A stretch of 64,000 nucleotides of DNA from IMG/VR virus record IMGVR_UViG_3300008516_000204, positions 1-64,000 of that record. One strand, given 5' to 3'. The notes under the pieces were generated by a model that searched no databases, was not told the origin of the DNA, and saw nothing but the letters and a program-made list of their open reading frames with translations. A program made the translations under genes and the position numbers. Source of the stretch: a virus. This document shows positions 3,223 through 43,031 of this stretch, piece by piece (the first letter of the stretch is position 1; each line of letters begins with the position of its first letter).

Positions 3223-3392
3223 TATCTAGTCCCTTTAAATTTAACTTCGATATCGTATTTTTTATGAAACATAGCACTAATTAATCCTTTTACAAATCTA
3301 ACAGTAATGTCTATATATCTTTTTACTACAATAAGAAAAGTATTGTAAACCTGCTTATTATACATAAATGAATTATAAATTTTATTCACCCT

Positions 3393-4481: not shown

Positions 4482-4497
4482 CTTTTCTACCTCCTAA

Positions 4498-8939: not shown

Positions 8940-10697
8940 TTATTTTCCAAATACGATTCTGTTCCAACCTCTATCGGTTGTCTTTTTCACATCTCTCTTC
9001 TCCTCATCATTTTTCTTATCAGCATAAGGAGCATCTGCTATAAAACTTTTTCTCTGTGGTTCTTTTTTTACTTTTTCTTTCGTTTTTTCGACTTTCTTTT
9101 CTATCTTCGGCTCTTCTTTCTTTTCCTTGGCTTTAGGTTTCTCAGCTAAAAGTTTCTCACCACAGTCTGGACAAACTTGTTCAATACAAGGAGTACCTCT
9201 TTTGTGCTCTACTTCTTTATCACATTTAAGACAGTAACAAGTACTTCTGCCTCCAACTCCCTGTCTTGGATTACCTTGTCCTTGACCCTGCCCAACTTCG
9301 GGAGCTTTCTCTTCCACTTTAGATTCCTCTACTGCTTTCTCTGGAAGTCTTGAGAGAACCTCATCAATCTTTTTACCTAAATCCTTAAGGCTCGCTAAAA
9401 TTTCTTTTAGAGGAGCTTCAGGAGCTGGGTATTGTTTTCCAGCTTCTTCTTCCTTTTTAGGATATGGGTATTTTTCAGGATAAGGATATTCCTGTCCAAC
9501 CAACTTCGATACCTTTGCTTTTATCTCCTGCAACAACGCTTTTACATCTTCATTGGTCTCTTTTGCGAGAAGCTTATCCAATAAGAAAATAATCTCCTTT
9601 ACCTCTTCACCTAGTTTTGCATAAGGGTATGGATAATAAGGATAGGGATATTGTTTAGCATCTTCAACCTCATCAATTAGAAGTTCCCAGGTTGCTTCAT
9701 CATCGTCTTTTACCTCTTCTTCCTTTTTTTCTTCTACTTTAGGTTCTTCCTTCTTTTCTTCAACTGGTTCAGATTTTTCCTCTTTTGCTTCTGAAACTGT
9801 CTCACCAGTTTTATCTGGTAAAAGATTAATTTGAATAGTAGAAGTGTCATCTGAGGTTGTAGGAGCAGCTTCAGCCTTTGTATCCTCAACTTTTTCTTCG
9901 GACTTAATTTTTTCAGCAGCTTCTTCATCCTCTTTTTCGTACTTCTCCAGATCCTTCTTCTGAGCATCCTCCTTCTCTTCTACTCTACTATCCTCTTTCT
10001 TTTCTACCTTTGTGGGCTCTTCTTTTTTCTCCTCCACAACTTCTTCAGCCTTCTTTTCCTCGGCTTTGGGTTCTGTAGTCTCAACAACATCAGAAGTTCC
10101 ATCAGAAACAGTAATGTCGGTAGTATCAGAATCAGTAGTTTCGATTTTCTTTTCTTCTGCCATTTCTTTCCCCTCCTCTCTCTTTTTGATTTCGTCTGTA
10201 ATCGCTGTGTTAAAAGATTTATTTACTAATGCAAATTTCGCTTCAGGATTAGCTGGTAATCCAACAACACTTACCTCAAATAATTCTATGCCTGTAACCT
10301 CATTATAGCGTTTACCGTCTTTTCCCACTTTTTCCTCCGATGCTATCACTCTACCACCGATGCTGAAACTATCAAGGATGTCCTCTTCTATCAGTGTCCA
10401 CAGTTGGTCGGCTGTCTGGGAAATCTCAACAACAACTTTCAAACCCTTATCATCGATTCCTGTTTCAATGACTTTTCCGACGGGAAATTTTTGATGCTCA
10501 TGTTCGTAGAAAACAGTATGGTTTTCAAGCAAGTGGTCAGCAGCCTGTCGTAACGCTTCTATAGTGATAACTTCATTCTGCCTATCGAGGGCAGCAGTAG
10601 AAGCATACCCTCTGATAAGACGTTTGCCATCCTTTTTAGATTTCTTCAGAATATCTGTGTAAACCTTAAACTGTAAATTATCAAATAAATTGTTCAT
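8940..10697 (-). CDS. HK97-family prohead protease fused to an acidic scaffold-like region
   Basis: IRGYAST...DRQNE, H..PVG, FSIGG, ELFEVSVVGLPANPEA; long E/K-rich C-terminus. Confidence 0.9.
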   Translation of the reverse strand: MNNLFDNLQFKVYTDILKKSKKDGKRLIRGYASTAALDRQNEVITIEALRQAADHLLENHTVFYEHEHQKFPVGKVIETGIDDKGLKVVVEISQTADQLWTLIEEDILDSFSIGGRVIASEEKVGKDGKRYNEVTGIELFEVSVVGLPANPEAKFALVNKSFNTAITDEIKKREEGKEMAEEKKIETTDSDTTDITVSDGTSDVVETTEPKAEEKKAEEVVEEKKEEPTKVEKKEDSRVEEKEDAQKKDLEKYEKEDEEAAEKIKSEEKVEDTKAEAAPTTSDDTSTIQINLLPDKTGETVSEAKEEKSEPVEEKKEEPKVEEKKEEEVKDDDEATWELLIDEVEDAKQYPYPYYPYPYAKLGEEVKEIIFLLDKLLAKETNEDVKALLQEIKAKVSKLVGQEYPYPEKYPYPKKEEEAGKQYPAPEAPLKEILASLKDLGKKIDEVLSRLPEKAVEESKVEEKAPEVGQGQGQGNPRQGVGGRSTCYCLKCDKEVEHKRGTPCIEQVCPDCGEKLLAEKPKAKEKKEEPKIEKKVEKTKEKVKKEPQRKSFIADAPYADKKNDEEKRDVKKTTDRGWNRIVFGK

Positions 10698-12532
10698 TTC
10701 GTTTCCTCCTCTTTCGGTAACTCACTCTTTTCCATAGTCCAAATATCTGTTTTCGGATCTTCTCTCACAAATATATATAATCCTTTAAGATTTTTTCCTT
10801 TAAATCTGACTTTCTTAAATAAATCCGAATCCTCCAAAACTTCCGCTTTACCATCATCTGTCAAAACCGAATAAGCGGGCGTATTTTTTGTAGGATTAGC
10901 ATCAGCATTAACAATGGTCCACAATCTTTCCAGATGGTCCATCCAAACTTTATCATCTTTTTTCAATCGTGGAAATAGAACTGGTTTGGAAGTATATCTC
11001 TCACCCTTTTTGTCTTTAACAGTATAAATTTGCCCTTGAGATGTTTCATCCACTTTTTCCACTACGGTTACTTCAATAAGTTCATCTATTACTCCAGCAG
11101 GAGCCAGTGAACCATCCCATTCAAGTGCTTCCCTCACTTTACAAGGCTTATATATACAGGTTGTCTTATCAATTACTGATGGGTTTTCTGTGCATTGAAA
11201 ATGTGGAAAAGGCATTTCTCCATTATCTATTCTTACATCCCAGTATTGTTCCGATGGTCCACGCCTCACGACTATCTGTCCACGAAACCAATGCCAATGC
11301 AATGCAAATGGAAATGTTCCAACTTTCTTCTCTACAGATTTCTTTTTCGGTTGCTTTTTCAAATATTCAAAATAGGCATCCCTAATTTTCCTTCTTTCTC
11401 CAAGGCTTTCTTTAGTCCAGTATTTGAACTCAATAGGAACATTCTTTTTCAAATCTAATGGCAGTGCTGAAAAGCCTTTCGGTGGAACCCATTTTTTATT
11501 CACTGCTCGTCGTGAAATAACATAGGGGGTTTGCACAATCGGTTGAATACAAACCCAGAATACACCCAGTTTTGGTTTTCCTTCTGGAATTTTTGATGGG
11601 GGCAAAATAATTTTTTGAAGTTCGGATTTTCTAAACACTACGCAACCATTTTTGGTCAATGGAACCCAATTAATTTCAGTTGGATTGAGCTCCTCATTTA
11701 CATAAGCCAATGAAGCATTAAAACTGTTTAAAACATATTCTGGTAAAATTCCTCTCTTTACTAAACTTTCAAAAGCCTTCTGCTCTAATCTGCGAAATAC
11801 TAATCTGCCTTTTAGTTTTCCATCCATCCAGTATTCGTGATAATAACTTTTCTGGCAAAGATACTGTGCCTTGCCCTTATCTACGATTAAAAATACCGCT
11901 GGATATTCCTTAGTGGCTCCTACCGTTCCTTTCGGTGCGACTCCTTGAACCTCCATCCACTCAATTGGTATTCTTGCTTTTTCGTGTGCCCTTAATTCAG
12001 TCGGCTTTATCTGTCCAGCAGCAGTTCTCCGCATTGCAAATTTTCCAGTTTTCCAATCTATTTTAAATGCTTTACCTTCTTTTTCGATTCGCCTTGCCTC
12101 TTTCATAGTCACTACTGGCTCTTTAATAACGCCCTTTATCAAATCATCTATCGTCCAACCAATTGCATATTCGCCACGCTTCGCTATTATACGCAAATCG
12201 GTATGACAGCTCTTGCCTCGCCAATGATGATGGCATATATATTTATATGGACCTTTATCCTCGGCTGGAACTTCCTTGTATAGTAAAACTTGCTTCTCAA
12301 GTCTTTTTTTGGCTTCTGCTAATTCCTCTGGTGTAGTTTCCAAAAATTTTCTTTCCCTTTCTGAAAAATATTTCTTCATTATCTCATTATAGTACTTTCT
12401 AGAAAGTTTTTTCATTTTCTTCGGTTTTGCTGTAAAGACAGAAGGATTTTTTCTTTTTCTTTTAAGTAATTCTTTTAGTATCTTCCGCCCTAATACTAAT
12501 AATTCTTTTTTTGAAACTTCACTTAATTTCAT
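10694..12532 (-). CDS. Protein with two LigD-type DNA 3'-phosphoesterase (PE)-like domains
   Basis: ICHHHWRGKSCHTDLRI...GTVGA....FLIVDKG...GKLKGRLVFRR and FALHWH...QYWDVRI...DDG...FKGKNLKGLYIFVR resemble the LigD PE H..HxDxR and G.KL.G.y.l.R motifs. Confidence 0.65.
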   Translation of the reverse strand: MKLSEVSKKELLVLGRKILKELLKRKRKNPSVFTAKPKKMKKLSRKYYNEIMKKYFSERERKFLETTPEELAEAKKRLEKQVLLYKEVPAEDKGPYKYICHHHWRGKSCHTDLRIIAKRGEYAIGWTIDDLIKGVIKEPVVTMKEARRIEKEGKAFKIDWKTGKFAMRRTAAGQIKPTELRAHEKARIPIEWMEVQGVAPKGTVGATKEYPAVFLIVDKGKAQYLCQKSYYHEYWMDGKLKGRLVFRRLEQKAFESLVKRGILPEYVLNSFNASLAYVNEELNPTEINWVPLTKNGCVVFRKSELQKIILPPSKIPEGKPKLGVFWVCIQPIVQTPYVISRRAVNKKWVPPKGFSALPLDLKKNVPIEFKYWTKESLGERRKIRDAYFEYLKKQPKKKSVEKKVGTFPFALHWHWFRGQIVVRRGPSEQYWDVRIDNGEMPFPHFQCTENPSVIDKTTCIYKPCKVREALEWDGSLAPAGVIDELIEVTVVEKVDETSQGQIYTVKDKKGERYTSKPVLFPRLKKDDKVWMDHLERLWTIVNADANPTKNTPAYSVLTDDGKAEVLEDSDLFKKVRFKGKNLKGLYIFVREDPKTDIWTMEKSELPKEEETK

Positions 12533-12533
12533 A

Positions 12534-14540
12534 TTAGTCTTTCCACTGATTATTCCTCATTTTCCAAGAAGCATAGGCACAACCCAATCGCCAATCATCA
12601 CGAAGTACTGCATCCCCCAATTTAGTCGGGTCATAGGTTCTAATATCTATAATTTTTTGTAAATAAACTTTGTAAATAGTTTCGCCTTCCATTGGAATTA
12701 TTTTTTCCTGAAATACTAATCCTGCTTTCGCTTTCCTCACAGCACTATCTATCGTATCAACTTCTTTATCGGTTTTTCCGAGTTCTCTCGGAGACCAAGC
12801 TGTTACCTTTATCTCATCAGTTTTTTCATCTCGTTCCAAATTAAGTGTCTCATATTCCAGCAAAAATACATCGCCCTTTTTCATCGGTCGTGCGGAGGAA
12901 AATGTTTTCCCGACTTTGAGATATTTTTTCCCACCGATTTCTACTATAAGTTTTTCTGTAACTTTCTTACCCTGCGGGTCAAGTCCAAAAAGATAATTCC
13001 ATATATTTTTCACTTTTGTTTCTATGGCTTCTATGACAATTACATTCGCAACTCCAGAATTGTGAAATTTCCACTGATTACTTCTTTTCCCATCTAATCT
13101 ATATTTAGCAGTTGAGAGTTTAATTACATTTCCTTCTGAGCCATCAAGTTTTCTAAGAAATTGTGTGTGCTTTCTGATGTCTTCTACTGTCTTACTTAAA
13201 ACTGCTGGTACTCTATTCAATTTATATTTTAAATTTGGTTTTCTCCAAGTTGCTTGGGGAAATTTCAAAGTTTTTAATGCCTCCAACCTTTTTTCAAATG
13301 ACTCATTATGAATATCCTTACCATTCAGATAAGTTATGTCATAAACATTTGCAACTAAACCAGTTTCGTCTGGTTCTCCTTTTCTGTGAACTCGCCCTAT
13401 AACAGCTTCTCTCGGTTGATGTTTTAATCCTCCATCTACAGTTTTCCACAACTCAACCTCTGCTACAAACGAAAAATTATCGGAATCGAGTTTCTTTAGC
13501 TCCTCAACCAACTCTGGAAATCTGTCAGTATTATCCTCACCATCTTCACTAATAATTTTTGCTTTACCTTTATCATAGTGAAACTCCAAATTCAATCCAT
13601 CATATTTTTTTGTGGAATACCAAGGCCCCTTACTTTCATTTGCTACAATTGATACAAATAAATCTATAGTTTGTCTTTCTCTTGGAAAATATCCTCTTAT
13701 CGGTTTAAGTGGTAAATAAAATCTGAATAACTTGACTTTATCTTCTTCTGCCGAGGCTTTTGCCTGAGCTTTTATTTCTGGGGATGCTGCTCTTTGTTTA
13801 GTAGTTAAATTTTTCAGGCTCATCTCTACTATATTAAATTCTGGATTTAAAATAAATTCCAATTTACCAAGACAAATATCTGTATCGGATGGCTTAAAAT
13901 TAGCATCAAACCGATACCTGATTCGATGCCAGTATTCTTTAGGAAGTGCTCTCCATATTCTAAACTTGATAGCGACTGAAATAGATGGCGGAAGTTTTGG
14001 ATAGCTAAAAACGAAATCAATATATCTCTTAGTTTCACCTTTTGCTGGTAGTTCGCCAACTAACCACAGAAACTTTTCCTCAAACACAACAGAAGATAAA
14101 CCTTTCAGAATATCATCCAAACAAATATCCTCGCCAATTTCCACGCCAGATGAGCCAACTGGAATATAAGATTTTTCCTCTGATTTTTCTTCCATAACAG
14201 TCATCTGTAATTTTCCCAGTGGAACATTTGAGGTAAAAGGTCCTCGATAGGCATCCATCATAAAATGGCTACGACTTTTTAAATTGTCATCGAGTCCCTG
14301 CATTAATTTTTCTTCCAACTCTCGAAGCATCCTATCTGGTAGATACTCAGCTCGGTATAAAATATCAAAATCACCCTTTGTTTTCTTCCTATTAACTATC
14401 CCTCCTGTCAAAAATAGAAAGGGATTTTTTATTACAAAAGAATCCATAACTGAAATTACTTCCGATAATTTAATAGGTTTCATATCAGGAGTTACCTTTC
14501 TGGGATTAACTATTAAATCTTTTTTGGTACTTTCTTTCAT
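12534..14540 (-). CDS. ATP-dependent DNA ligase with N-terminal nucleotidyltransferase-like domains
   Basis: Motif I KKYDG, III AEVE, IIIa VYDITY, IV EGNVIK, V WK; N-terminal LTGG-x9-DFD Pol-beta-type NTase signature plus a degenerate second copy. Confidence 0.85.
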   Translation of the reverse strand: MKESTKKDLIVNPRKVTPDMKPIKLSEVISVMDSFVIKNPFLFLTGGIVNRKKTKGDFDILYRAEYLPDRMLRELEEKLMQGLDDNLKSRSHFMMDAYRGPFTSNVPLGKLQMTVMEEKSEEKSYIPVGSSGVEIGEDICLDDILKGLSSVVFEEKFLWLVGELPAKGETKRYIDFVFSYPKLPPSISVAIKFRIWRALPKEYWHRIRYRFDANFKPSDTDICLGKLEFILNPEFNIVEMSLKNLTTKQRAASPEIKAQAKASAEEDKVKLFRFYLPLKPIRGYFPRERQTIDLFVSIVANESKGPWYSTKKYDGLNLEFHYDKGKAKIISEDGEDNTDRFPELVEELKKLDSDNFSFVAEVELWKTVDGGLKHQPREAVIGRVHRKGEPDETGLVANVYDITYLNGKDIHNESFEKRLEALKTLKFPQATWRKPNLKYKLNRVPAVLSKTVEDIRKHTQFLRKLDGSEGNVIKLSTAKYRLDGKRSNQWKFHNSGVANVIVIEAIETKVKNIWNYLFGLDPQGKKVTEKLIVEIGGKKYLKVGKTFSSARPMKKGDVFLLEYETLNLERDEKTDEIKVTAWSPRELGKTDKEVDTIDSAVRKAKAGLVFQEKIIPMEGETIYKVYLQKIIDIRTYDPTKLGDAVLRDDWRLGCAYASWKMRNNQWKD

Positions 14541-19623: not shown

Positions 19624-19652
19624 TTGACTTTTCGGGCTTTTTATGGTATACT
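19624..19652 (+). promoter_or_regulatory. sigma70-type early promoter P2
   Basis: TTGACT-N17-TATACT with extended -10 TG. Confidence 0.8.
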
Positions 19653-25542: not shown

Positions 25543-25571
25543 TTGACAAGAAACAGTTTTTGTGGTATACT
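25543..25571 (+). promoter_or_regulatory. sigma70-type early promoter P4 (heads the operon containing the GGDEF gene)
   Basis: TTGACA-N17-TATACT with TGTG extended -10. Confidence 0.85.
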
Positions 25572-27119: not shown

Positions 27120-27713
27120 ATGAGACTATGGTCAATTCATCCACACTATCTTGACAGACAAGGACTTTTAGCCGTTTGGAGAGAGGGATTATTAGCCCAA
27201 AAAGTATTGATACAGGGAGAATATAAACTTTGTTCTTGTATCAACGGAGTAGTAAGAAAATTTATAGATGTATCTCCTGTTGGTAAACATAGATGGGGAT
27301 ATGTCAAGTGTCGAAATTGTAAAGGCACAACTAAAATAAAAACTCCTTATTACAATCATCCACAACTTTTGCGTTTTAAACAATGTAAAAATTCTATTAG
27401 AACTATAAACTATTATTTAAGAAAGATTTGGGAAGAAAGTGTCAAAAGAAAATATAATTTCGATATAAATAAAATAAAAGATGTTTATGCAGTAGAAGAA
27501 TTAACAGTAACAACAGGACAATTAGAGTATGAATTTAAACATTTACAAAATAAATTATTTGAAAGAAATAAAAAACAATACATTAAAAACAAAAAATATA
27601 TTTCAAAATATAATTTAAAATGGGGTATTGTTTGTGATGTAAAGAAAATAGAACCTCATCCTTTATTCAAAGTAGTAAAAGGAGATATTGAATCTTGGGA
27701 AAAAATAAAATAG
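27120..27713 (+). CDS. Pyrimidine dimer DNA glycosylase / endonuclease V family, with Zn-finger insert
   Basis: MRLWSIHP.YLD..GL.A.WRE.LLAQKVL, Y.NHPQL.RF, GQL.YE..HL, HPLF.V..G.IE.WEK. Confidence 0.88.
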   Translation: MRLWSIHPHYLDRQGLLAVWREGLLAQKVLIQGEYKLCSCINGVVRKFIDVSPVGKHRWGYVKCRNCKGTTKIKTPYYNHPQLLRFKQCKNSIRTINYYLRKIWEESVKRKYNFDINKIKDVYAVEELTVTTGQLEYEFKHLQNKLFERNKKQYIKNKKYISKYNLKWGIVCDVKKIEPHPLFKVVKGDIESWEKIK

Positions 27714-28623: not shown

Positions 28624-28852
28624 AGGAGATGTAATGAAAAATAAATATTGTCCATATTGCAAGAGTAAGAATATACAGAAAGTAGTCATTAAATTTTCAA
28701 ATAGTCAGGAACAACGAGTAGGTCTTTGTATGAGTTGCAAAAAGATTTTCAGTATTAAAAAAGGAAAATAAAATGCTACTATTGGCGGTATTATTAATTC
28801 TTTTAATTTGCTAGCTGATTAACAAATTTATGGAAATATGAGGAAGGTGAAA

Positions 28853-29092
28853 ATGAGAAAGAAAGAGTATAGGAAGGTAGAACTAACTTGCGTAGATATA
28901 ATTTCTTATGAGAAAGGAATTTGGAAACCAGAAGAATTGGAATTGCCAGAAGTAAAGATAGTCGGTTATTTGTGGTTTAAAGACAAGGAAAAGGTTGCTC
29001 TTAAAAGGATAGAAGGACATCCTGAAGATGAGCCCATTCTAATACCATTGGGATGCGTAAAGAAGATGACCTATCTTAAGGAAGTAAAATGA
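28853..29092 (+). CDS. Hypothetical protein
   Basis: V.L..VD...VGYL......V.L.....IP.GCV; overlaps the GGDEF start (ATGA). Confidence 0.65.
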   Translation: MRKKEYRKVELTCVDIISYEKGIWKPEELELPEVKIVGYLWFKDKEKVALKRIEGHPEDEPILIPLGCVKKMTYLKEVK

Positions 29093-29607
29093 CTAAAAGA
29101 GAACTTCAGCGAAAATTAAAGAAATTAGAAACCAAACTAAAAAGATATAAAAAATTTAGTTGGTATGATGACTTAACCAATCTTTTTAATAGAAGAAAAT
29201 TAAAGAGAGATTTGAATAGGTTATGCTATGATTATAAGAGATATAGACATATATTTATGATGATTTTAATAGATATAGATGGATTTAAAGAAATAAACGA
29301 CACCAAAGGACATTTGGAAGGAGATAGAGTTTTAAAGAAATTTGCAAATATAATTAAAAAAGCTATTAGAGAAACTGACAGAGCCTACAGACCGAGTGGA
29401 GACGAATTTGTTATTGTATTACCTCATAGTAATATTAAAAGTGCCAATAATGTTATACGAAGAATTAAGACAAATGCACAGGTAAATATAAGTTATGGAA
29501 TAGATAGAGGAAAGAAACCAAAAGAATTGCTTATTAATATAGATAAAAAAATGTATGAAAATAAAAGGAAGAATACTACAAAGAATAGAATAATAACTGG
29601 GACTTGA
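29089..29607 (+). CDS. Diguanylate cyclase (coiled coil + GGDEF domain)
   Basis: DDLT..NRR, IDIDGFKEINDTKGHLEGD, I-site RETD five residues before the A-site SGDEF, ISYG, D..MY..K. Confidence 0.93.
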   Translation: MTKRELQRKLKKLETKLKRYKKFSWYDDLTNLFNRRKLKRDLNRLCYDYKRYRHIFMMILIDIDGFKEINDTKGHLEGDRVLKKFANIIKKAIRETDRAYRPSGDEFVIVLPHSNIKSANNVIRRIKTNAQVNISYGIDRGKKPKELLINIDKKMYENKRKNTTKNRIITGT

Positions 29608-29632
29608 CAAATTAGGTTTTATAGCATATACT
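29604..29632 (+). promoter_or_regulatory. sigma70-type promoter P5 overlapping the GGDEF stop codon
   Basis: TTGACA (29604-09)-N17-TATACT (29627-32). Confidence 0.85.
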
Positions 29633-29663: not shown

Positions 29664-29747
29664 TATCCTCGATAAAGGTAAACCAGCCGAAAGACTGGGG
29701 CACAAAACTCAAGGTCGTTTTAAGCGAAGCCGAGTTGCCGAAGGATA
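29664..29747 (+). ncRNA. c-di-GMP-I (GEMM) riboswitch aptamer 1
   Basis: P1 TATCCTCG/CGA-AGGATA; GATAAAGGTAAA-CCAG-CCGAAAGA-CTGG-GGCACAAA-ACTC...AGCC-GAGTTGCCGA matches the GEMM consensus including the GNRA loop. Confidence 0.9.
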
Positions 29748-29764
29748 GGTAATTCGGCTTTTTT
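29727..29764 (+). terminator. Intrinsic terminator overlapping aptamer 1 (ON switch)
   Basis: AAGCCGAGTTGCC-GAAGGATA-GGTAATTCGGCTT ending in a T6 run. Confidence 0.88.
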
Positions 29765-29813
29765 ATTTAGGAGGAATTTCTGAAGTAGTATAACTTCAAC
29801 ACACAATTTGATT

Positions 29814-29888
29814 TACGATAAAGGCAATTCGCTAGTATAGCGAAGCGCAAAGCTGTGGGTCAGAGATGATAGCCGAGCTACCACAGTA
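29814..29888 (+). ncRNA. c-di-GMP-I (GEMM) riboswitch aptamer 2
   Basis: CGATAAAGGCAA-TTCGCTA-GTA-TAGCGAA-GCGCAAA-GCT..GGGTC..GATAGCC-GAGCTACC. Confidence 0.85.
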
Positions 29889-29909
29889 TTCGGTAGCTCG
29901 GCTTTTTTT
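29871..29909 (+). terminator. Intrinsic terminator overlapping aptamer 2 (ON switch)
   Basis: Perfect 12-bp AGCCGAGCTACC/GGTAGCTCGGCT stem ending in a T7 run. Confidence 0.92.
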
Positions 29910-29928
29910 CTAAAAAAGGAGGTCTAAA

Positions 29929-30510
29929 GTGCCTATGAAATTAATTAACCGATTAATAATAGCAACTATTTTATGCTCGGTAAACTTAATAGCTTATGGG
30001 GAAGTGATGGAGGGCGAGGGTTTTGCTATCGGTGGGTTAAAGGGCAGATATTATGAAAATGGTGGATGTATCTATTTTATTGGGGATTTTACAGAGAAAG
30101 AAATTATTATGCACCAACAAAAATATGAAAAAAGAATGACTAAAAGAGCAAGGCAAGTCGATGGTGAAATACAGCGAAAACATGAAATAGAGATTGAGAA
30201 AATTAGGGCTCAGGCATTGAGAGATTACCTAATTGCTCAAGATATGCCATTACGAGAAATTGCGGATGCTATGAGAAATCTTAAAATTAGGCAGAATGTA
30301 AATATAGGAGATATTACTTCCTCAAGTTCTTCTTCTATTGGGGATATAACAAATACATCCTCCTCAATTTCCGAAGGCAGTAATGCTACAGGAACTGGTG
30401 GAACTTTAACCAATACAAATACCAATTCGGCCAGAAGTTGGGGTTGCCCTTGTATAAAATGTCTTGAAGCGCCACTGCTTGAGACCATACCAAAAGAATT
30501 AGAATATTAA
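29929..30510 (+). CDS. Riboswitch-controlled putative secreted protein (coiled coil + S/T/N-rich tail)
   Basis: SD AAGGAGGT, GTG start; signal-peptide-like N-terminus ending IAYG; IGDIT-Sn repeats. Confidence 0.75.
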   Translation: MPMKLINRLIIATILCSVNLIAYGEVMEGEGFAIGGLKGRYYENGGCIYFIGDFTEKEIIMHQQKYEKRMTKRARQVDGEIQRKHEIEIEKIRAQALRDYLIAQDMPLREIADAMRNLKIRQNVNIGDITSSSSSSIGDITNTSSSISEGSNATGTGGTLTNTNTNSARSWGCPCIKCLEAPLLETIPKELEY

Positions 30511-30539: not shown

Positions 30540-30884
30540 ATGTGTCCAAAACAATACAAAGAAATATTCCGAGGAAAGACTGCTCGAACTCTGGAACTAT
30601 TGAGAGAGGAACAAGAACCCAAAACTCCTCTGGAAATTCTCATTGAGGAGGAGAAAAATGAGTTTGATGTTACCCAGAAAAAGCAGGAACATTTAGTCAA
30701 GGAAGTCAGGAGGGCTTTGAAAAGTTTGACATTAAGACAAAGGCAATGTATCAGATTATACTTTACAAGGAACAAAAAGCAGAAAGAAATAGCTCAAATA
30801 TTAGGCATTAATCAGAATGTAGTAACAGTACATCTTGCGAGAGCGAAAAAAAAGTTAAAAAAAGTGCTTAAAGGGAAGCGATAA
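30540..30884 (+). CDS. sigma70 region-4 (HTH) domain regulator
   Basis: AL..LT.RQR..I.L.F......KEIA..LGI....V..HL.RA.KKL; no region 2 visible. Confidence 0.85.
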   Translation: MCPKQYKEIFRGKTARTLELLREEQEPKTPLEILIEEEKNEFDVTQKKQEHLVKEVRRALKSLTLRQRQCIRLYFTRNKKQKEIAQILGINQNVVTVHLARAKKKLKKVLKGKR

Positions 30885-30885
30885 A

Positions 30886-31152
30886 ATGCCGAAAAAACAC
30901 TATATTATGAGGGGTAAAAAGTTGAAAAGAGATAGAAAAATGACCTATCCTGTTACAGACAGAGAGGTTGAAGAATTTATCTACAATGCTTTTGAACGCC
31001 AGAACCCACCGAGTATATTCAAAATGGCCCTTGACCGATTGAAGGAAGAGGGCTTTCGTTTTGATACAGCCAGAAACCTGCGAAAAAATTGGGATAGGCT
31101 TATAGATAGGGCTTTGGAGATTAGAGAGGAACTTGATAGAGAGGAGATATAA
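30886..31152 (+). CDS. Hypothetical protein
   Basis: Coupled, ORF track. Confidence 0.65.
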   Translation: MPKKHYIMRGKKLKRDRKMTYPVTDREVEEFIYNAFERQNPPSIFKMALDRLKEEGFRFDTARNLRKNWDRLIDRALEIREELDREEI

Positions 31153-31153
31153 A

Positions 31154-31468
31154 GTGAGAAAGTTATTTATAATTTTATTTATATTAGGATTAGTATTTTT
31201 TAGTAAAACAAACTATTCTCCATATTCTTGGCAAATTGCAATAAATCCAAGAGAAATTCATACTATAAATAAGATTGATTTAACATATCGAATTAAAGGG
31301 TTTCAATTAGTGGTATGGAAAAGACTATCATTTGAACCCTACATAGGTTTTCCTATCTTTACTTTAACAGGAGAATTGGAAAGAGAATGGATTAAAGAAA
31401 AGGGTGAAGCAGAAATTTTTGCAGATAAAATGATAAAAATACATAAAGTTATAGAGGAGATGAAATGA
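31154..31468 (+). CDS. Membrane-anchored hypothetical protein
   Basis: GTG start after SD GAGGAG; N-terminal TM. Confidence 0.6.
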   Translation: MRKLFIILFILGLVFFSKTNYSPYSWQIAINPREIHTINKIDLTYRIKGFQLVVWKRLSFEPYIGFPIFTLTGELEREWIKEKGEAEIFADKMIKIHKVIEEMK

Positions 31469-31825
31469 AAAAGAAATTAGAAGTCATAACCAAAGTCAAT
31501 AAGAGTGAGTGCTATATCTGCAAAGGCAGTGATAAGGATTGCAGGGCCTGTAATGGAACTGGCATTTACAAGGATAAGACCTATTTCTTCATTGTGAACG
31601 GTTATGCCTATTCTGGGGATACTTTAAAATAAGGGGAATAGAATGATACAGACAATCTTAACTTATGTCCAGCCGATAACAATAATCGCTTTCATAGTGG
31701 CAGGAACCTGCTGTTTATTGCTTAGACCGATACAGTTAACTACTGGCATTATTAACTATTTGCTTGGTGCTATCAATTTCTTTATTTTTTACGGGCTAAA
31801 AATTTTAGGGAGGTAGAAAAATAAA

Positions 31826-32104
31826 ATGAGAAAATTAAAAAAATATTTGAAGTATAAAAGATTTATAAGAAAAATTAGAAATCAATTACCTATTCGTCAT
31901 CCAGAAACAGGACAATGGTTAAATTGGGATGTAGAACTTATTAGAATTGGTAGTAAATATAACCCAATGACAGGCGAGGAATATGGAGGCTATTTAACAT
32001 TAAGTATAACTCAACATAATGACTATATATCTGTAGATGATACTGTTTATAGATATAACTGGAAGAAAAAAAGAATAGAACAAACTGGAGCTAGATGGAG
32101 ATAA
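31826..32104 (+). CDS. Hypothetical protein
   Basis: SD GGGAGGT. Confidence 0.65.
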   Translation: MRKLKKYLKYKRFIRKIRNQLPIRHPETGQWLNWDVELIRIGSKYNPMTGEEYGGYLTLSITQHNDYISVDDTVYRYNWKKKRIEQTGARWR

Positions 32105-32105
32105 G

Positions 32106-32978
32106 ATGAAAACCGATTTCCAAGATTTACTCATCGCACTAAATCTGTTGCCATTGAACAAGAGGCAGATTAACGCCCTGCTTTTGCTTTACTCTTACTA
32201 TCTCGACTCAAATGGGGATAATTCCGAAAAAGTCAGTATAAAAGACCTGAGCCTCCAAATCGGACTGGACAGCACAGTTGGCTCATTCACTCTGGATAGT
32301 TTGATAGATTACAATATTTTGGGCTCTGTTGTGCTAAAAGAGTTTGTGGTAAAAAAGGAGATTGCACAGCATTTTCAGCGAGATTTCCTGCAAACTTTAA
32401 AAGGCAAAAAAAATCTGGTAAAACAGGCTATCAGCAGGGTGGGATTTTTTATCAAAGAGGGAACGAAGATTTATGTCTTCAACCCAGTTTTGGAGAGCTG
32501 GAAATATCCGAGCTGGTACAAGTTGAGAAAGGCACTTAAAATTTTAAAGACAAGATTTCCAGCAAACGAGTTTTTGAAAAATCTGTCAAGCACTCTTGAG
32601 AAAAATTCTAAGAATACGAGGAAGAAAGTTACCGACAAAGAGGGAAGGATAAACGCACCCTATCTGGTCAGGGTGTTTCTGTCCAAGTTCAACAATGCCT
32701 ATGGAAAGAAATACACGCCGAACTGGGCGATGGACAGCATCAAAATGAACAATCTCATCAGGCAGTTTGAGAAGAACAATATGACTGCAAAGGATGTTCC
32801 AGATTTTCTGGACTGGACTTTCGGGAAAGCGGAGGAAAGAAAACTATCTATGCACACAGGACTGTTGCGGACTTTTGCAAACGAGTATGTGATAAAGGAT
32901 ATTCATCGGATAAAGCGAAATCGGAAGTTTCGAGAAACGATAGATGGAGACAAATTTATTCGGACAAAGGAGGAATAA
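32106..32978 (+). CDS. Hypothetical protein, possible replication initiator/loader (wHTH-like N-terminus)
   Basis: Upstream of primase-helicase; SIKDLS..IGL HTH-like segment; helical C-terminal domain. Confidence 0.5.
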   Translation: MKTDFQDLLIALNLLPLNKRQINALLLLYSYYLDSNGDNSEKVSIKDLSLQIGLDSTVGSFTLDSLIDYNILGSVVLKEFVVKKEIAQHFQRDFLQTLKGKKNLVKQAISRVGFFIKEGTKIYVFNPVLESWKYPSWYKLRKALKILKTRFPANEFLKNLSSTLEKNSKNTRKKVTDKEGRINAPYLVRVFLSKFNNAYGKKYTPNWAMDSIKMNNLIRQFEKNNMTAKDVPDFLDWTFGKAEERKLSMHTGLLRTFANEYVIKDIHRIKRNRKFRETIDGDKFIRTKEE

Positions 32979-32979
32979 G

Positions 32980-33267
32980 ATGAAAAGATTATTGATTAGT
33001 TTATTGGTAGGAGTTATTTTATTTGTTAATATGCCTTCTTATGCTTTGACTAAAGAAGAAGCAGATGGATATGTAGGAATGAAAAATGTTATAGTTTTGA
33101 CTTATGGATTGCTCAATCCTATAGAAGGCTTGAGATGTAACATCATAGCTGGAAGAACAATTGTCGAGAAAAATGGGAATTATGATGTTTATCTTTTGGA
33201 AAAATTAAATGGAGATGTGATTAGTATAAGAATTGAATATATCATCGAAGTATTAACAACTCAATAA
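32980..33267 (+). CDS. Secreted hypothetical protein
   Basis: SD AGGAGG; MKRLLISLLVGVILFVNMPSYA signal peptide. Confidence 0.65.
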   Translation: MKRLLISLLVGVILFVNMPSYALTKEEADGYVGMKNVIVLTYGLLNPIEGLRCNIIAGRTIVEKNGNYDVYLLEKLNGDVISIRIEYIIEVLTTQ

Positions 33268-33562
33268 ATAGATACCGCCTCATCTTCTTTTTTAAAACTA
33301 TGAGATATATTAGCAAGAGAAAATACAAGAAACTGATTAACCTCGTGGAAAAAATACTCTCTTCTGGGGAGGAATATGATGTTGCGAGGGAGTATTTTAT
33401 CGTGGAAGTTATCTTGGAACGGTTGCATATAAAGGTGGAGAAATAATGGCGATATTTTATCAGATAGTAGCGGGATTTCTTATGCTTTGTCTTCTTGGAT
33501 TGGTGGGATTTTTGGTTGCAATAGTTATTAGAGGGTTATGGCAAATATTTTGGAGATAAAAA

Positions 33563-33745
33563 ATGACTAAGATTAAAAGTGATAGGAAAATCCATAAATT
33601 ACATTACGGTATCAATATGCGTTCTCCTTATTATCGTTCTTCTTGTGGAAGGTGGAATGATTTAAAAATGGTAGGAACTTTTCAAGGAAAAGAAGTAACT
33701 TGTAAAACATGTTTGAGGTCAATGAGAAAGAAAGAGAGAAATTAA
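33563..33745 (+). CDS. Small Zn-binding protein
   Basis: IH....CG....VTCKTC. Confidence 0.6.
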   Translation: MTKIKSDRKIHKLHYGINMRSPYYRSSCGRWNDLKMVGTFQGKEVTCKTCLRSMRKKERN

Positions 33746-33749
33746 ATAA

Positions 33750-36044
33750 GTGAGAATAAAAAATTTAGAAGAACTAAAAAATAAACTCAGACCTTATTTA
33801 AAGGAATATCTCGAACTCAATGATACTGTATTCGAGGGGAATCACCTGACCTGTCCCTGTCGGTCTAATCACAGGAACGATGACAACACCCCATCTGCGA
33901 CATTCTTCCCCGACGATGAGCATATCAAGTGCTTTGTGTGTGACGATGTATCCAATGCCGACATATTTGCTTGTGCTTATTTTCTTGAGGGAAAGCCTCT
34001 TACTGGTTCTGAATTTATCAGTGATAATGTTTTATACTTGGCGAAAAAGTTTGATATCTCCTATAAGGTGGAGGACATAAGCGACAGGGAAAAGCAAGCG
34101 AGTCAGTTGCGAGAAATTTTGGAAGTGGCTAACAAGATGATGAAAGCGGTAATAAAGCAGGAACATTCCTCGTTGAAAAAAGTCAAGGATTATATTAAGA
34201 AAAGACATTGGGATAAAATCATAGACAAGTTTGAGTTTGGTTACTGCCTTTATGAGAAGTTAATTGCTAATCTTTTGAAGCGGGGATATACCAAAGAACA
34301 GCTTGAAATGGCTGGCTTAACAGATAAAGATAATGGGAGAAACCAGAATAGTGCCAAAGGCGTTTTGAATAATCGGCTCGTATTTCCCATTAGGGACGGA
34401 TATGGCAGGATAACTGGGTTTGCTAGCAGACGATTAAGCGACAAAAATGGGGAGCAGAAATACATCAACTTTAGGGCGACTAATTTGTATAAAAAAGCCG
34501 AGATACTATATAACTTGAAAGAGGCGAAAAATCATCCCAAAGTCTATCTTGTTGAGGGGTATGCCGATGTGTGGTCTTTGGCTTTAAAAGGAGTGGATAA
34601 TGTCATTGCTCTGGGAGGTTTGGGATTTAGTGATAAGCAATATGACCTTTTGGTGTATAATAGGATTAAGCAGTTGACACTCTGTCTTGATAATGATGAG
34701 GCTGGAAAAGAAGCGACTACCCGAATTGTTGAAGAAAAATTAAAGGCAAAAAGGGATATAGAAGTTTTTATCAAAGAGCCAAATGGAAATAAAGATCCAG
34801 ATGAATACTTACAAAGACATAGTGCTGAAGATTTTCTTGGCTTACCAGAGTTCACCATTTTTGAGTGGAAACTTAAGGACTTGAAAGAGAATAAAGAGAA
34901 TGAGTTTCTCAAAAATGACTTGATCCAGTTGGTAGTTAATGAGGAAGATTATGTAACCACCGAACAGATGATAAGGGATCTGGCCGAGGTTTTAAATGTT
35001 ACTTTTGAGACACTCAAAAAAGAAGTTGAGCGAAACAGGAAATTGGGTAGTGGCAAATATTTGCTAACTTCACGTGATATATTGAAAGAGAAAGCATCTC
35101 TTGAAACCGAAGTAAACCAGTTCGAGTCTTGGGCTTGGTCGAGGGGTGGTGGACTTTTGGGTCTGAAAACTGGCTATCCGATACTCACGAAAAAATTAGA
35201 TGGGTTGCAAAATGCTTTCTATCTGCTCGCTGGACAGACAAACATAGGAAAATCAGCAGTCTTATTAAATCTGGCCTTAAATCTTACGAAACATAACGAT
35301 GTCTTTGTATTGTTCTTTTCCATTGATGATAATATCAGGCAAATACTTCCGAGAATAATTGCTGCCGATACTAATTTGGAAATAAATACTGTGGCAAATC
35401 CGAAGTTCAAGATTAAATATAACAAGGAACTCAAACCAGAAAGAGCCGAAGAGTTGCTCAAAGCCCGTGAAAAAGCGATGACCAACCTAAAATCCTTGTC
35501 AAATTCTTTTGCCGTAAAAGAGGAAAACGATATTCGCAGCATAGAGGAGATGGAAAAATACATCCGAATATACAAGGAGATTGCGGGCAAGAAGCAGTTG
35601 GTTGTAATCGTTGACAATCTGCACAGGATAAAAAGCGAACTGAGGTTCGGCTCGGTGAGGGAGACATATATGTATGTGTCGGACACGCTGAAAAGATGGA
35701 AGACCGATTATGATATTCCAGTTGTGGCCACAGCCGAACTCAAGAAGATAAACTCGTTGCGGAGACCGTTGGGCGACGATATTAAGGAATGTGTTGATTT
35801 GCAGTTCGATTCAGATTTTACAGCACTACTCTACAATGATTTTGATTTGCGGGATGACAGTACCCTGTATTTTGTGGATAATAATGGGAAATCCCAACCT
35901 GTCATTGAAATAAGCGTTATCAAGAACAAGACGGGCGGGTTCAAGGGAAAGTTATACTACAAATTTTATAAAAATTTTTCCAAGATAGTTGAGGCTTCAA
36001 GAGAGGAAATGGAGCAATACTTTTCAGATTTTATAGGAAGATAA
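33750..36044 (+). CDS. DnaG-type primase fused to a DnaB-like helicase
   Basis: Zn finger CPC..H..D.TPS...CF.C; FPI....GF..R, KYIN; TOPRIM VEGY.D, DND.AG, KDPDE; Walker A AGQTNIGKS, Walker B IVD, KNK.G. Confidence 0.93.
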   Translation: MRIKNLEELKNKLRPYLKEYLELNDTVFEGNHLTCPCRSNHRNDDNTPSATFFPDDEHIKCFVCDDVSNADIFACAYFLEGKPLTGSEFISDNVLYLAKKFDISYKVEDISDREKQASQLREILEVANKMMKAVIKQEHSSLKKVKDYIKKRHWDKIIDKFEFGYCLYEKLIANLLKRGYTKEQLEMAGLTDKDNGRNQNSAKGVLNNRLVFPIRDGYGRITGFASRRLSDKNGEQKYINFRATNLYKKAEILYNLKEAKNHPKVYLVEGYADVWSLALKGVDNVIALGGLGFSDKQYDLLVYNRIKQLTLCLDNDEAGKEATTRIVEEKLKAKRDIEVFIKEPNGNKDPDEYLQRHSAEDFLGLPEFTIFEWKLKDLKENKENEFLKNDLIQLVVNEEDYVTTEQMIRDLAEVLNVTFETLKKEVERNRKLGSGKYLLTSRDILKEKASLETEVNQFESWAWSRGGGLLGLKTGYPILTKKLDGLQNAFYLLAGQTNIGKSAVLLNLALNLTKHNDVFVLFFSIDDNIRQILPRIIAADTNLEINTVANPKFKIKYNKELKPERAEELLKAREKAMTNLKSLSNSFAVKEENDIRSIEEMEKYIRIYKEIAGKKQLVVIVDNLHRIKSELRFGSVRETYMYVSDTLKRWKTDYDIPVVATAELKKINSLRRPLGDDIKECVDLQFDSDFTALLYNDFDLRDDSTLYFVDNNGKSQPVIEISVIKNKTGGFKGKLYYKFYKNFSKIVEASREEMEQYFSDFIGR

Positions 36045-39947: not shown

Positions 39948-42900
39948 ATGAAAACTATAGCATTAGCAATGATAGTCAAAAACGAATCGAGAGTGATAAA
40001 GCGTTGCCTCGATTCTGTCAAAAACATTATTGACTATTATGTGATAATAGAGGACACCGCTTCTACCGATGGCACAGCAGATATTATTCGTGAAACCCTG
40101 AAAGATATCCCAGGCGAGATAATACAGAAGGACTGGGTAGGATTTGCGGATACTCGAAACCATTATATTGAGGCATCGAAAGGGAAGGCGGATTATATTT
40201 TGGTAATGGATGCCGACCAAATTTTGGAAGTTGATAACGATTTTGACAAGGATAAATTGGACAAGGACATTTATAACTGTATCGTGAAATATCCCACATT
40301 GCAACACCATTTCCCCAAGATATTTAGACCAGATTGCGGATGCAAATATAAGGGCATTATACATAACTTTTTATCTACGAGTAATGTAACTGTGGGACAG
40401 CTAAATAATATCAGATTTTTAGATCTACACGACGGGAAGCGGGCAATGAATTATTCGGAAAAGATAAAGAAAGATATTGAGATTTTGAAAAGTGCTATTA
40501 AGGCAGACCCAGCAAATAAAGTGAGATATACATTTTACTTGGCACAATCTTTGCGTGAAGATGGAAGATATGAACAGGCTATTAGATACTATAAGAAACG
40601 AGTAAGTTATAAGGGTTGGCGAGAGGAAGTTTATCGAAGTTTATACCAAATAGGTAATTGTTATTTAGCACTTAAAGATTATAATAGAGCTATCTACAGT
40701 TACTTAAAAGCATATAATTACAGACCAACGAGGGCAGAATCTATTTTCAAATTAGCACTTTTATATCGCAATCTCGGACAGAGGCAATTGGCGTACGAAT
40801 TTTCTAAAATAGGAATCGGGATTAAGTATCCCAAATCCGATACATTATTTGTTGAGCATAATATCTACGATTATCTAATGTTGTTTGAGTATTCAATTGC
40901 CCTTTATTATGTAGGAAGATATGCGGAGTCGATTAGGGTTTGTAATAGGATAGATTCTATGGTGGGAGTTCCCAAATCTATTAAAGAACAGAATAGAAAA
41001 AATCGGGAGTTCTCGCTGAATAAGATTTCAGAGTGGTCTATGGACAAGGAAATGTATAATTGGATAAGAAGAAATGTACCCAGAGGGGGTACTATACTTG
41101 AACTTGGAAGTGGGAAAAGCACGATAGATTTAGAAAAGGATTATAGAGTATATTCAGTAGAGCATAGTAAAGAGTGGTTAAATCTCTCACCCAAAAGTAG
41201 ATATATTTATGCTCCGATAAGAAAGGGTTGGTATGATATTGATGTATTGAAAAGGGAGATGCCAATTCACTATAATTTGATAATTGTGGATGGTCCGCCA
41301 GGATATATAGGAAGAAAGGGTTTCTATGAGAATCTAAAATTGTTTAATACCAAAGTTCCCATTCTATTTGACGATACCAATCGCAAAGCAGAAAAAGGTT
41401 TATTGGAAAAGGTAGCAAAGAAATTAAGAACCAAATATACAGAATATAATGTCAGTAATAAAAAGTTTGCTGTGCTTAATTATATAGAGAAAAAGCCTAA
41501 GAAATATGATGTTATTTTCTATGATAATGTTACAACACCATTTACTTCAAGGACTTGGAAAAGTAAGGCTGTCGGGGCTTCAATATTGGAAGCATCATTA
41601 TTGCTAACTGAACTCGCTAAAGAGAAGAAAGTTTTGGCTTTTTCTCGGACAGATAAGTCAAAGGTACAAGATAGAATTTTGTGGAAGAATTATAATAATT
41701 GCTACAATTATGAGTGCGATACTCTGATAGTTTTCAGATACAGTAGTTTGCCTCCAATTAAGTATAAAAGACTTATCGTATGGGCACACGATGCACCACC
41801 ACTCGCCCATAGGCATTTATTTGAAGCATTAAATAGGGATAACGCAACTTTGGTTACAATATCGGATTGGCAGAAATCTCTTTTCGAAAAATATGTAAAG
41901 AATATTGAGACGATAAGATTATGGCTTCCAGATTGGATTTACAGTTATAAGACAGAAAAAGACCCAAATAAATATATCTATGCGAGTGCCAATGTGAAAG
42001 GATTAGATAGCACGATTAAACTGTGGTCGGAACTAAAAAGAGATAGCCGAATGATAGGGGCAACCTTGTATGTTTGTACGCCTGGATATGACAAAGTGGA
42101 TGAACAAAAATTGAGGGAAGCAGGTGTAGTATTTTTAGGAAGCCTTCCAACATTAGAAGATGTAATCAGGGAAATTGCAAGTTCGGTAGGAATGTTTTAT
42201 GTCAATGATTTTCCAGAGACATTTGGGGTATCTCCTTATTTGGCAGAAGTATTAGGTTGCCGAACTCATATTTTATGTGTAAAAGGATTTGGTGCTTTGA
42301 GAGAAGTGTTGAATAGCGATTTACTGACAGATGATAGGGATAAGTTTATGGCAGATGTTTTGGAGGCACATCAAAATGGTGGGCATATATTTGAGCCAGA
42401 TGTACTTACAAAAGAGGAACAATATAGAAAATGGAAGGCAATGATAGATAAAAAGGAAATCACCGAAATCCTACAGGAAAGCGATATTCCAAAAGGGATG
42501 TATTTGAGGAATTTTGAGGGTGGTAAAGAGGGATTACAGGAACTGATTAGCAACTTACCGAAGAATTGTGTTATGGCTGAAATTGGAAGTTATATTGGAG
42601 AGTCTACTGAATTATTTGCTAAAAATTGTTTTAGAGTTTATGCTATCGATGCTTGGGAAAATTATTACGATAAAAATGATAAATCATCTTATCAGTATCC
42701 TATGAAGTTAGTAGAGCAGGCTTTTGATGTTAAAACAAAAAAATTCTTTCTTAAGATAGTAAAAATAAAAAAATATAGTAAAGAAGCAAGTGAGACTTTT
42801 GGAAACAAGATTTTTGATTTTGTCTACATAGATAGCAATCATCAGTATGAGAATATCCTTGAGGATATTAAGATTTGGTTGCCGAAGATAAAGCCGAATG

Positions 42901-43031
42901 GGATGATAGGCGGGCACGATTATGGCTATTTACCCAATGTTACAAAAGCGGTTGATAAAGTATTCGGGGAGCAGAAAGTAGAAACTTTTGAGGACACAAG
43001 TTGGTTGGTTAGATTGGAAAATGTAAAATGA
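39948..43031 (+). CDS. Multidomain GT2-TPR / SAM methyltransferase / GT-B-like / methyltransferase protein
   Basis: MIVKNE..I.RCL.S, STDGT, MDAD; TPR helices; LELGSG.ST, VDGP; PETFG...AE; EIGS..G.S, YID..H.YE, GHDY. Confidence 0.85.
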   Translation: MKTIALAMIVKNESRVIKRCLDSVKNIIDYYVIIEDTASTDGTADIIRETLKDIPGEIIQKDWVGFADTRNHYIEASKGKADYILVMDADQILEVDNDFDKDKLDKDIYNCIVKYPTLQHHFPKIFRPDCGCKYKGIIHNFLSTSNVTVGQLNNIRFLDLHDGKRAMNYSEKIKKDIEILKSAIKADPANKVRYTFYLAQSLREDGRYEQAIRYYKKRVSYKGWREEVYRSLYQIGNCYLALKDYNRAIYSYLKAYNYRPTRAESIFKLALLYRNLGQRQLAYEFSKIGIGIKYPKSDTLFVEHNIYDYLMLFEYSIALYYVGRYAESIRVCNRIDSMVGVPKSIKEQNRKNREFSLNKISEWSMDKEMYNWIRRNVPRGGTILELGSGKSTIDLEKDYRVYSVEHSKEWLNLSPKSRYIYAPIRKGWYDIDVLKREMPIHYNLIIVDGPPGYIGRKGFYENLKLFNTKVPILFDDTNRKAEKGLLEKVAKKLRTKYTEYNVSNKKFAVLNYIEKKPKKYDVIFYDNVTTPFTSRTWKSKAVGASILEASLLLTELAKEKKVLAFSRTDKSKVQDRILWKNYNNCYNYECDTLIVFRYSSLPPIKYKRLIVWAHDAPPLAHRHLFEALNRDNATLVTISDWQKSLFEKYVKNIETIRLWLPDWIYSYKTEKDPNKYIYASANVKGLDSTIKLWSELKRDSRMIGATLYVCTPGYDKVDEQKLREAGVVFLGSLPTLEDVIREIASSVGMFYVNDFPETFGVSPYLAEVLGCRTHILCVKGFGALREVLNSDLLTDDRDKFMADVLEAHQNGGHIFEPDVLTKEEQYRKWKAMIDKKEITEILQESDIPKGMYLRNFEGGKEGLQELISNLPKNCVMAEIGSYIGESTELFAKNCFRVYAIDAWENYYDKNDKSSYQYPMKLVEQAFDVKTKKFFLKIVKIKKYSKEASETFGNKIFDFVYIDSNHQYENILEDIKIWLPKIKPNGMIGGHDYGYLPNVTKAVDKVFGEQKVETFEDTSWLVRLENVK

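Follow-up and report, generated by a model that had tools for sequence, protein, structure and literature searches.

A predicted minimal diguanylate cyclase next to tandem c-di-GMP riboswitches in a 106-kb phage: a possible viral second-messenger circuit

Described systems and the phage locus

The nucleotide c-di-GMP is viewed as a lifestyle signal of cells. Bacterial riboswitches of the c-di-GMP-I class are known to occur in tandem, with 347 doublets and 12 triplets on record, and a separate terminator for each aptamer gives pseudo-cooperative, 'more digital' control of the downstream genes (PMC9481103); the survey that describes these tandems makes no mention of phages (PMC9481103). Riboswitches are considered rare in phages (PMC5473149), and the phage precedent for this class consists of single c-di-GMP-I riboswitches in C. 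difficile prophages, such as that of the phiCD119 lysis module, with only two prophage examples listed in a 2017 census. Small GGDEF proteins are annotated in several phages, namely Bacillus phage SP-15 (183 aa), Bordetella phage CN1 (152 aa), Bacillus phage G (gp350) and the C. perfringens phages CPD4/P21; a search of the literature found no tested function for any of these proteins and no phage described as having a cyclase paired with a c-di-GMP riboswitch. Among the characterized cyclases, the closest systems are the coiled-coil-activated enzymes, i.e., WspR with its stalk (represented by 3i5c), DgcB (6ttr), IsPadC (5llx), SiaD and DgcR, in which, as in the phage protein described here, a helix runs straight into the DxLT motif.

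We analyzed the first 64 kb (64,000 nucleotides, hereafter the window) of IMGVR_UViG_3300008516_000204, an IMG/VR virus record that is complete at 106,111 bp and has direct terminal repeats; the locus of interest is present in DNA runs of marine-sediment metagenomes. The head genes, which encode the portal, the S78 prohead protease and the capsid protein, are located on the − strand, and the + strand from about 16 kb carries many small early ORFs followed by genes for a primase-helicase, an exonuclease, methyltransferases and the DNA polymerase. No integrase or resolvase is detectable in the genome, and the phage is probably virulent. A DNA search of the INPHARED phage collection yielded no close relative of this phage, and no tRNA genes were found within the window. 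Outside the locus, the − strand encodes an ATP-dependent DNA ligase domain protein of 667 aa (12534-14540) and a 611-aa protein without a Pfam match (10694-12532), both located between the portal and prohead protease genes, an odd location for DNA-repair genes, and two proteins with collagen triple-helix repeats (1190-2146 and 4498-5607) that are probably tail fibres, the former also containing DUF2793 and a weak, sub-threshold CBM_5_12 match. On the + strand, a pyrimidine-dimer DNA glycosylase (27120-27713; Pyr_excise, E 9e-17) is encoded among the early genes, and a 1027-aa fusion of glycosyltransferase and methyltransferase parts (PHROG matches) is encoded at 39948-43031.

The features of the locus are as follows:

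25543-25571, +, sigma-70-type early promoter (consensus match): TTGACA, 17 nt, TATACT, with a TG extension
28838-29092, +, ORF of 84 aa, the stop codon of which overlaps the cyclase start codon (ATGA)
29089-29607, +, predicted minimal diguanylate cyclase, 172 aa: stalk helix and compact GGDEF domain, SGDEF A-site, RxxD I-site
29604-29632, +, promoter (consensus match): TTGACA, 17 nt, TATACT; 11/12 matches
29667-29742, +, c-di-GMP-I riboswitch aptamer 1 (RF01051, 50.9 bits, E 5e-7)
29726-29768, +, intrinsic terminator T1: 14-bp stem (29726-29761), then a U-run
29813-29885, +, c-di-GMP-I riboswitch aptamer 2 (RF01051, 49.3 bits, E 1.3e-6)
29871-29910, +, intrinsic terminator T2: 12-bp stem (29871-29903), then U7
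29929-30510, +, first gene of the predicted gated unit, 193 aa: signal-peptide or TM-like N-terminus, charged helical region, S/T-rich tail
30540-30884, +, second gene of the predicted gated unit, 114 aa: sigma-70 region-4-only protein (ECF-like; Pfam Sigma70_r4_2, E 1.8e-12)
30886-36044, +, tightly packed ORFs that run into the primase-helicase gene (33750-36044)

The phage doublet resembles the bacterial tandems in that the aptamers belong to the same class and each has its own terminator, but, unlike them, it belongs to a 106-kb phage that is probably virulent, follows directly on the gene for the predicted ligand synthase and precedes regulatory and replication genes. Likewise, the cyclase shares with the coiled-coil-activated enzymes the fold, the catalytic residues and the RxxD I-site, but lacks any sensor or receiver domain, has a strongly basic stalk of only about three heptads, and contains a domain with SGDEF that is about 19 positions shorter and has no terminal strand; the identity to these enzymes is 23-35%. 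The proteins of SP-15, CN1, phage G and CPD4/P21 show at most 35% identity to the cyclase.

The predicted minimal cyclase and its relatives

The protein encoded at 29089-29607 matches PF00990 (Pfam GGDEF) with an E-value of 7.9e-35 and 120.4 bits (cut-off 23.8), residues 25-162 being aligned with profile positions 2-158 of 161, and TIGR00254 with 115.8 bits, above the cut-off of 37.4; it also matches PHROG families 5594 and 14602 and reaches none of the NCBIfam equivalog cut-offs. Residues 1-26 form a basic N-terminal helix with 11 K/R against 2 D/E, which gives the stalk a net charge of about +9, and a heptad pattern of L6, L10, L13, L17 and Y20 can be read from the cyclase sequence. The GGDEF domain starts at D27-D-L-T30 and contains IDID (D62, D64), N70, GH (74-75), GD (78-79) and an I-site, R94-E-T-D97, that lies exactly five residues ahead of the A-site S103-G-D-E-F107. 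The sequence-only reading of this ORF had listed DxLT, IDID, the guanine-binding N and D, RxxD and SGDEF, all of which are indeed present, and had noted that only a short basic coiled-coil stretch precedes DxLT, which agrees with the 26-residue basic N-terminus.

Because there are no indels between the motifs, cyclase residues can be numbered as PleD minus 265, in a motif-by-motif reading rather than a printed alignment to PleD, with the equivalences D62 = D327, K67 = K332, N70 = N335, D79 = D344, R94/D97 = R359/D362, R101 = R366 and S103 = G368. In PleD, D327 binds the metal, K332, E370 and K442 contact the phosphates, and N335 and D344 recognize guanine (PMC7288161). The phage protein retains the full set of metal, phosphate and guanine residues (D62, K67, N70, D79, D105 and K159), and its I-site comprises R125, the helix Arg corresponding to PleD R390, in addition to RxxD. 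The departure from the canonical GG(D/E)EF A-site is the replacement of the first Gly by S103, with G104, D105, E106 and F107 kept. In the Hypr enzymes, i.e., cGAMP synthases, the determinant of specificity is Ser or Thr in place of the Asp at PleD D344 (PMC7288161); the phage cyclase has Asp (D79) at this position, so that it lacks the Hypr determinant, and this Asp is kept in 37 of the 39 relatives described below. Given this Asp, as opposed to Ser, at the Hypr position and the intact catalytic and I-site residues, the best reading is a sensor-less, coiled-coil-type GGDEF protein that is predicted, from sequence and structural model, to be a feedback-limited c-di-GMP synthase.

Replacement of the first A-site Gly by Ser or Ala with activity kept has been described for Pectobacterium ECA3270 and for V. 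cholerae MbaA and VCA0965 (PMC3974145, PMC8079147), and activity of the SGDEF form itself is documented for ECA3270 (PMC3974145) and MbaA (PMC8079147), which bears out the earlier statement that SGDEF variants can be active. VCA0965 became inactive when Ser was introduced as its first A-site residue (PMC3974145), so that tolerance of Ser at this position depends on context. All three are large, sensor-linked bacterial proteins, unlike the phage cyclase, and the comparison implies no orthology. Since natural SGDEF enzymes are active, S103 lowers the claim of cyclase activity without excluding it.

In an AlphaFold2 monomer model of the cyclase (pLDDT 93, pTM 0.83), a stalk helix (residues 3-23) leads into a compact GGDEF fold. 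The modelled domain is shorter than the canonical one: it lacks about 19 profile positions, has four main strands and ends in a long helix that no further strand follows. In a Foldseek search, the best PDB matches are coiled-coil-linked cyclases (probability 1.00, TMq 0.74-0.83), e.g., IsPadC with GTP (5llx, TMq 0.82) and the DgcB coiled coil plus GGDEF (6ttr, 0.83), with further matches to the GCN4-WspR fusion (3i5c), SiaD (7e6g), DgcR (6zxm) and PleD. These matches, obtained with a model of the monomer, would fit the earlier idea of constitutive, dimer-driven activity.

Sequence searches identified a clade of about 160-aa proteins that are 45-75% identical to the cyclase and all contain SGDEF, as well as a wider set of stand-alone mini-GGDEFs (148-194 aa) from metagenomes and viral contigs. 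In a family alignment of 39 minimal relatives (148-194 aa), D62, K67, N70, R94, R101, G104, E106, F107 and K159 are invariant, and D105 is kept in all relatives except one (38/39). The I-site Asp is replaced by Glu in five relatives, and the position of R125 is occupied by Arg in 35 and by Lys in the other four. Within the A-site, the first residue alone is free (G in 17 relatives, S in 16, E in 2, and A, N, Q and Y once each), and relatives at 53% identity have the canonical GGDEF; conservation in the family extends to the basic heptad helix and to the 'KYKKLS' junction. As judged from this alignment, the conservation pattern is that of a conserved enzyme and not of a degenerate receptor of the PelD/PopA type, the catalytic residues being conserved and the I-site Asp less so. 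Among 185,579 species genomes (one per species), we detected no relative above 42% identity and only generic GGDEF matches of at most 44% identity, partial and spread across many phyla; given the lack of a close relative in these genomes, the clade looks phage-restricted, or at least confined to phages and metagenomes. A single-protein search of IMG/VR with the cyclase gave no match, and a protein search of INPHARED gave matches of at most 38.5% identity.

Promoters, tandem riboswitches and the genes predicted to be gated

The promoter at 25543 is the nearest one upstream of the cyclase and is the one to which we would assign the cyclase operon; no + strand terminator was found between this promoter and position 29726. 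The exact pattern TTGACA-N17-TATACT occurs at three sites in the 106 kb (21543, 25543 and 29604), all on the + strand and within 21.5-29.6 kb, against a chance expectation of about 0.05, a composition estimate made by hand and not a tool output; these promoters are consensus matches only. A variant, TTGACT-N17-TATACT, is present at 19624 (+), and two copies of the repeated early promoter carry the TG extension. No consensus early promoter was found on the + strand beyond 29632. The ATGA overlap between the 84-aa ORF and the cyclase gene suggests that the two are translationally coupled; the 84-aa ORF has no Pfam, NCBIfam or PADLOC match. At the other end of the cyclase gene, the −35 hexamer of the 29604 promoter includes the stop codon, TGA. 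PADLOC assigned neither the cyclase nor its neighbours to a defence family, and membership of the cyclase in a lysogeny or defence module was considered and rejected, there being neither an integrase or resolvase nor a PADLOC hit.

An Rfam scan of the window gave exactly two hits, both to the c-di-GMP-I riboswitch and both directly 3' of the cyclase gene; both aptamers span model positions 1-87 of 87, with scores above the RF01051 gathering score of 35, and they are the only c-di-GMP-I hits in the complete genome. Each aptamer is coupled to an expression platform through shared strands: the 5' arm of T1 (29726-29739) is the 3' strand of an aptamer 1 helix, and the 5' arm of T2 (29871-29882) is the 3' strand of an aptamer 2 helix. 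The minimum-free-energy fold in the ligand-free state contains the terminator in both units. Because aptamer and terminator are mutually exclusive, both riboswitches are predicted, from these folds, to be ON switches. Aptamer variants selective for cGAMP carry a G-to-A change at the position equivalent to G20, and both phage aptamers have G at what is, by our own mapping on the Rfam alignment, presumably this position. A strict hairpin-plus-U-run scan of the + strand from 16 to 106 kb gave T1 and T2 and no other intrinsic terminator. Over these 90 kb, the long + strand block thus seems to be without other intrinsic stops under the strict scan. The genome encodes one GGDEF domain, and searches of it for EAL, HD-GYP and PilZ domains and for c-di-GMP-II riboswitches gave no hit; therefore, the two aptamers are the only recognisable c-di-GMP receptors of the phage.

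The 193-aa protein encoded immediately downstream of T2 has no family match, and a search of the ESM Atlas gave no usable hit. The 114-aa protein matches Pfam r4 and r4_2, and its match to TIGR02937 covers only model positions 70-165 of 165; it thus contains region 4 only, as opposed to the combination of regions 2 and 4 that defines an ECF-type sigma factor. Judging by its sequence, this DNA-binding protein is a candidate regulator of the next gene class. Given that the subsequent ORFs are packed and that no later strict terminator or consensus early promoter is present on this strand, the gated transcription unit probably extends through 30886-36044 and would then include the primase-helicase gene.

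A syntenic sister phage (IMGVR_UViG_3300024353_000005, hereafter L003), in which the flanking proteins are mostly 70-92% identical, keeps the promoter base for base, both aptamers and both terminators, with compensatory changes in the stems; the counterpart of aptamer 2 scores 57.1 bits. The homologue of the 84-aa ORF is in the same place (73% identical), the first gated protein has a homologue that is 58% identical over 89 aligned residues, and the sigma region-4 protein is 80% identical. The cyclase slot, which is bounded by the 81/84-aa ORF and the promoter, is occupied in L003 by a gene for a 513-aa REC-GGDEF-HD-GYP protein (3386-4927), the GGDEF domain of which has RxxD plus GGDEF and is only 30% identical to the 172-aa cyclase; the ATGA stop/start overlap is present here as well if the enzyme starts at Met13. 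With this domain architecture, the slot enzyme would be a phage-borne protein that both makes and degrades c-di-GMP under the control of phosphorylation. In L003, terminator 2 and the first gated gene are also about 190 bases further apart, and the additional sequence holds a 71-aa Cys-rich ORF (5197-5412) without a counterpart in the window. The cyclase gene reads about 10 residues beyond the usual end of the family, into the conserved promoter flank, and this 3' overrun looks like a cassette junction. Given that two non-orthologous c-di-GMP enzymes fill the same slot ahead of the same sensor, the comparison of the two sequences argues that the adjacency of writer and reader is under selection.

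Exact-pattern scans of IMG/VR for the riboswitch module retrieved the L003 contig alone, so that the coupling of cyclase and riboswitch was found in two phages only. No c-di-GMP riboswitch was found in the fetched flanks of about 40 other GGDEF-encoding viral or metagenome loci, a set that left out the loci of SP-15, CN1, phage G and CPD4/P21. The locus L076 encodes an SGDEF cyclase that is 68-70% identical, has no riboswitch and carries a RuvB-like gene directly after the cyclase gene; the minimal-cyclase contigs L077/L078, L005 and L007 are likewise devoid of c-di-GMP riboswitches, and a complete, unrelated 89-kb phage (G002) encodes a 159-aa ISGDEF cyclase and has no c-di-GMP-I or -II riboswitch and no PilZ domain, i.e., no recognisable c-di-GMP receptor. 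Near the GGDEF genes of two other viral contigs, Rfam hits above gathering were obtained for an ssNA-helicase RNA (L019, 7141-7188) and a skipping-rope RNA (L074, 582-665), and a 358-kb jumbo-phage contig (L015, IMGVR_UViG_3300017963_000188) has a gene for a 514-aa GGDEF protein with a tmRNA gene and ten tRNA genes on its flanks.

A possible circuit and its alternatives

The reading that we favor is that an active minimal cyclase serves as the writer for the adjacent gate of tandem ON riboswitches, and we assign it a probability of roughly 0.55; here, we infer the activity and dimerisation of the enzyme, the ON logic in vivo, the timing and the extent of the gated unit. Counting against this reading are the Ser at the first A-site position, the missing C-terminal strand and the very basic stalk of the enzyme, the close relatives without riboswitches and the restriction of the coupling to two phages. 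Under the proposed mechanism, the cyclase would be transcribed early from host-type promoters, and the accumulating c-di-GMP would bind the two tandem aptamers of the leader transcribed from the promoter in which the cyclase stop codon lies. Each bound aptamer would withhold the 5' arm of its own terminator, and RNA polymerase would then read through both into the genes that encode the secreted or membrane protein and the sigma region-4 regulator, and probably on into the replication module. With two gates in series, leak would be low and the threshold steep, properties from which it would follow that the circuit acts as a delay timer or a commitment switch, one that would also integrate the host's own c-di-GMP level, and genome replication would raise the dose of the cyclase gene and thus create positive feedback. 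The complete scheme, namely an autonomous circuit of a virulent phage in which the cyclase writes and the tandem ON riboswitches license the switch from early genes to regulator and replication genes, with gene dose supplying the feedback, the I-site setting a ceiling and the slot being refittable with a sensor-controlled enzyme that would turn the timer into a decision device, is tentative, and we would place it a shade below even odds.

The sequence-only reading had presented the cyclase as a stand-alone source of c-di-GMP. The sensor-less synthase part of that proposal is strengthened by the sequence and structural comparisons, whereas a stand-alone host manipulator as the main story fares poorly in view of the tandem riboswitches downstream and the retention of the module in L003. 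The broader alternative along these lines is that manipulation of the host is the real job of the cyclase, through shutdown of motility or pili, changes in surface glycans or matrix, or a block to superinfection, with the riboswitches reading host c-di-GMP and the adjacency being incidental. The minimal cyclases in phage contigs without riboswitches (L076, L077/L078, L005, L007) speak for it, as do the small GGDEF proteins of the isolated phages SP-15, Bordetella CN1, Bacillus phage G and the C. perfringens phages, and the 89-kb phage with its cyclase but neither a c-di-GMP riboswitch nor PilZ lends some support to it, including effects on biofilm and motility; because the relatives in L076, L077/L078, L005 and G002 lack riboswitches, the family would have a riboswitch-independent role in other phages, and this role is presumably host-directed. 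For the present locus, we nevertheless consider the alternative rather unlikely, given that both related phages carry the gene for a c-di-GMP enzyme, non-orthologous between the two, in the slot before the conserved promoter and riboswitches, and that in the absence of a recognisable integrase or resolvase long-term reprogramming of the host is less obviously useful. The host-directed and circuit roles are compatible and not mutually exclusive.

The remaining alternatives concern the enzyme itself. A catalytically dead protein might bind c-di-GMP at the I-site and act as a binder or sponge that keeps the ON gate shut or blunts host signalling, and the non-canonical SGDEF A-site, the truncated domain and the presence of RxxD with its R125 partner could all be taken in this sense, degenerate GGDEF receptors being well known (PMC7288161). 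Such receptors, however, lose the catalytic residues and keep RxxD, and the 39 relatives display the reverse, with Glu at the I-site in five of them; together with the canonical GGDEF of the relatives at 53% identity, this makes the possibility an improbable one. More doubtful still is the idea that the enzyme makes another nucleotide (cGAMP, c-di-AMP or a linear product), which the aptamers would either sense or be unrelated to. The Hypr GGDEFs show that the fold can change its product (PMC7288161), and the first A-site position is unusually free in the clade, but D79 (PleD D344) is retained in all relatives except two and N70 in all of them, and both aptamers score as c-di-GMP-I riboswitches with, presumably, the G20-equivalent G; a different product thus appears very improbable.

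If the preferred reading, with the cyclase as writer for the tandem riboswitch gate, is correct, the phage would possess a viral developmental timer built on a nucleotide second messenger, a circuit that would parallel the peptide (arbitrium) and quorum-sensing circuits of phages, and the pair formed with L003 would represent a natural module swap at a fixed regulatory slot, minimal cyclase versus REC-GGDEF-HD-GYP. In practical terms, the locus may yield a cyclase that is very small, at about 160 aa, and probably constitutive, and may offer synthetic biology a compact tandem ON switch with low leak. For the family, a clade that looks phage-only and in which the first A-site position is free would amount to a natural experiment on the need for that glycine.
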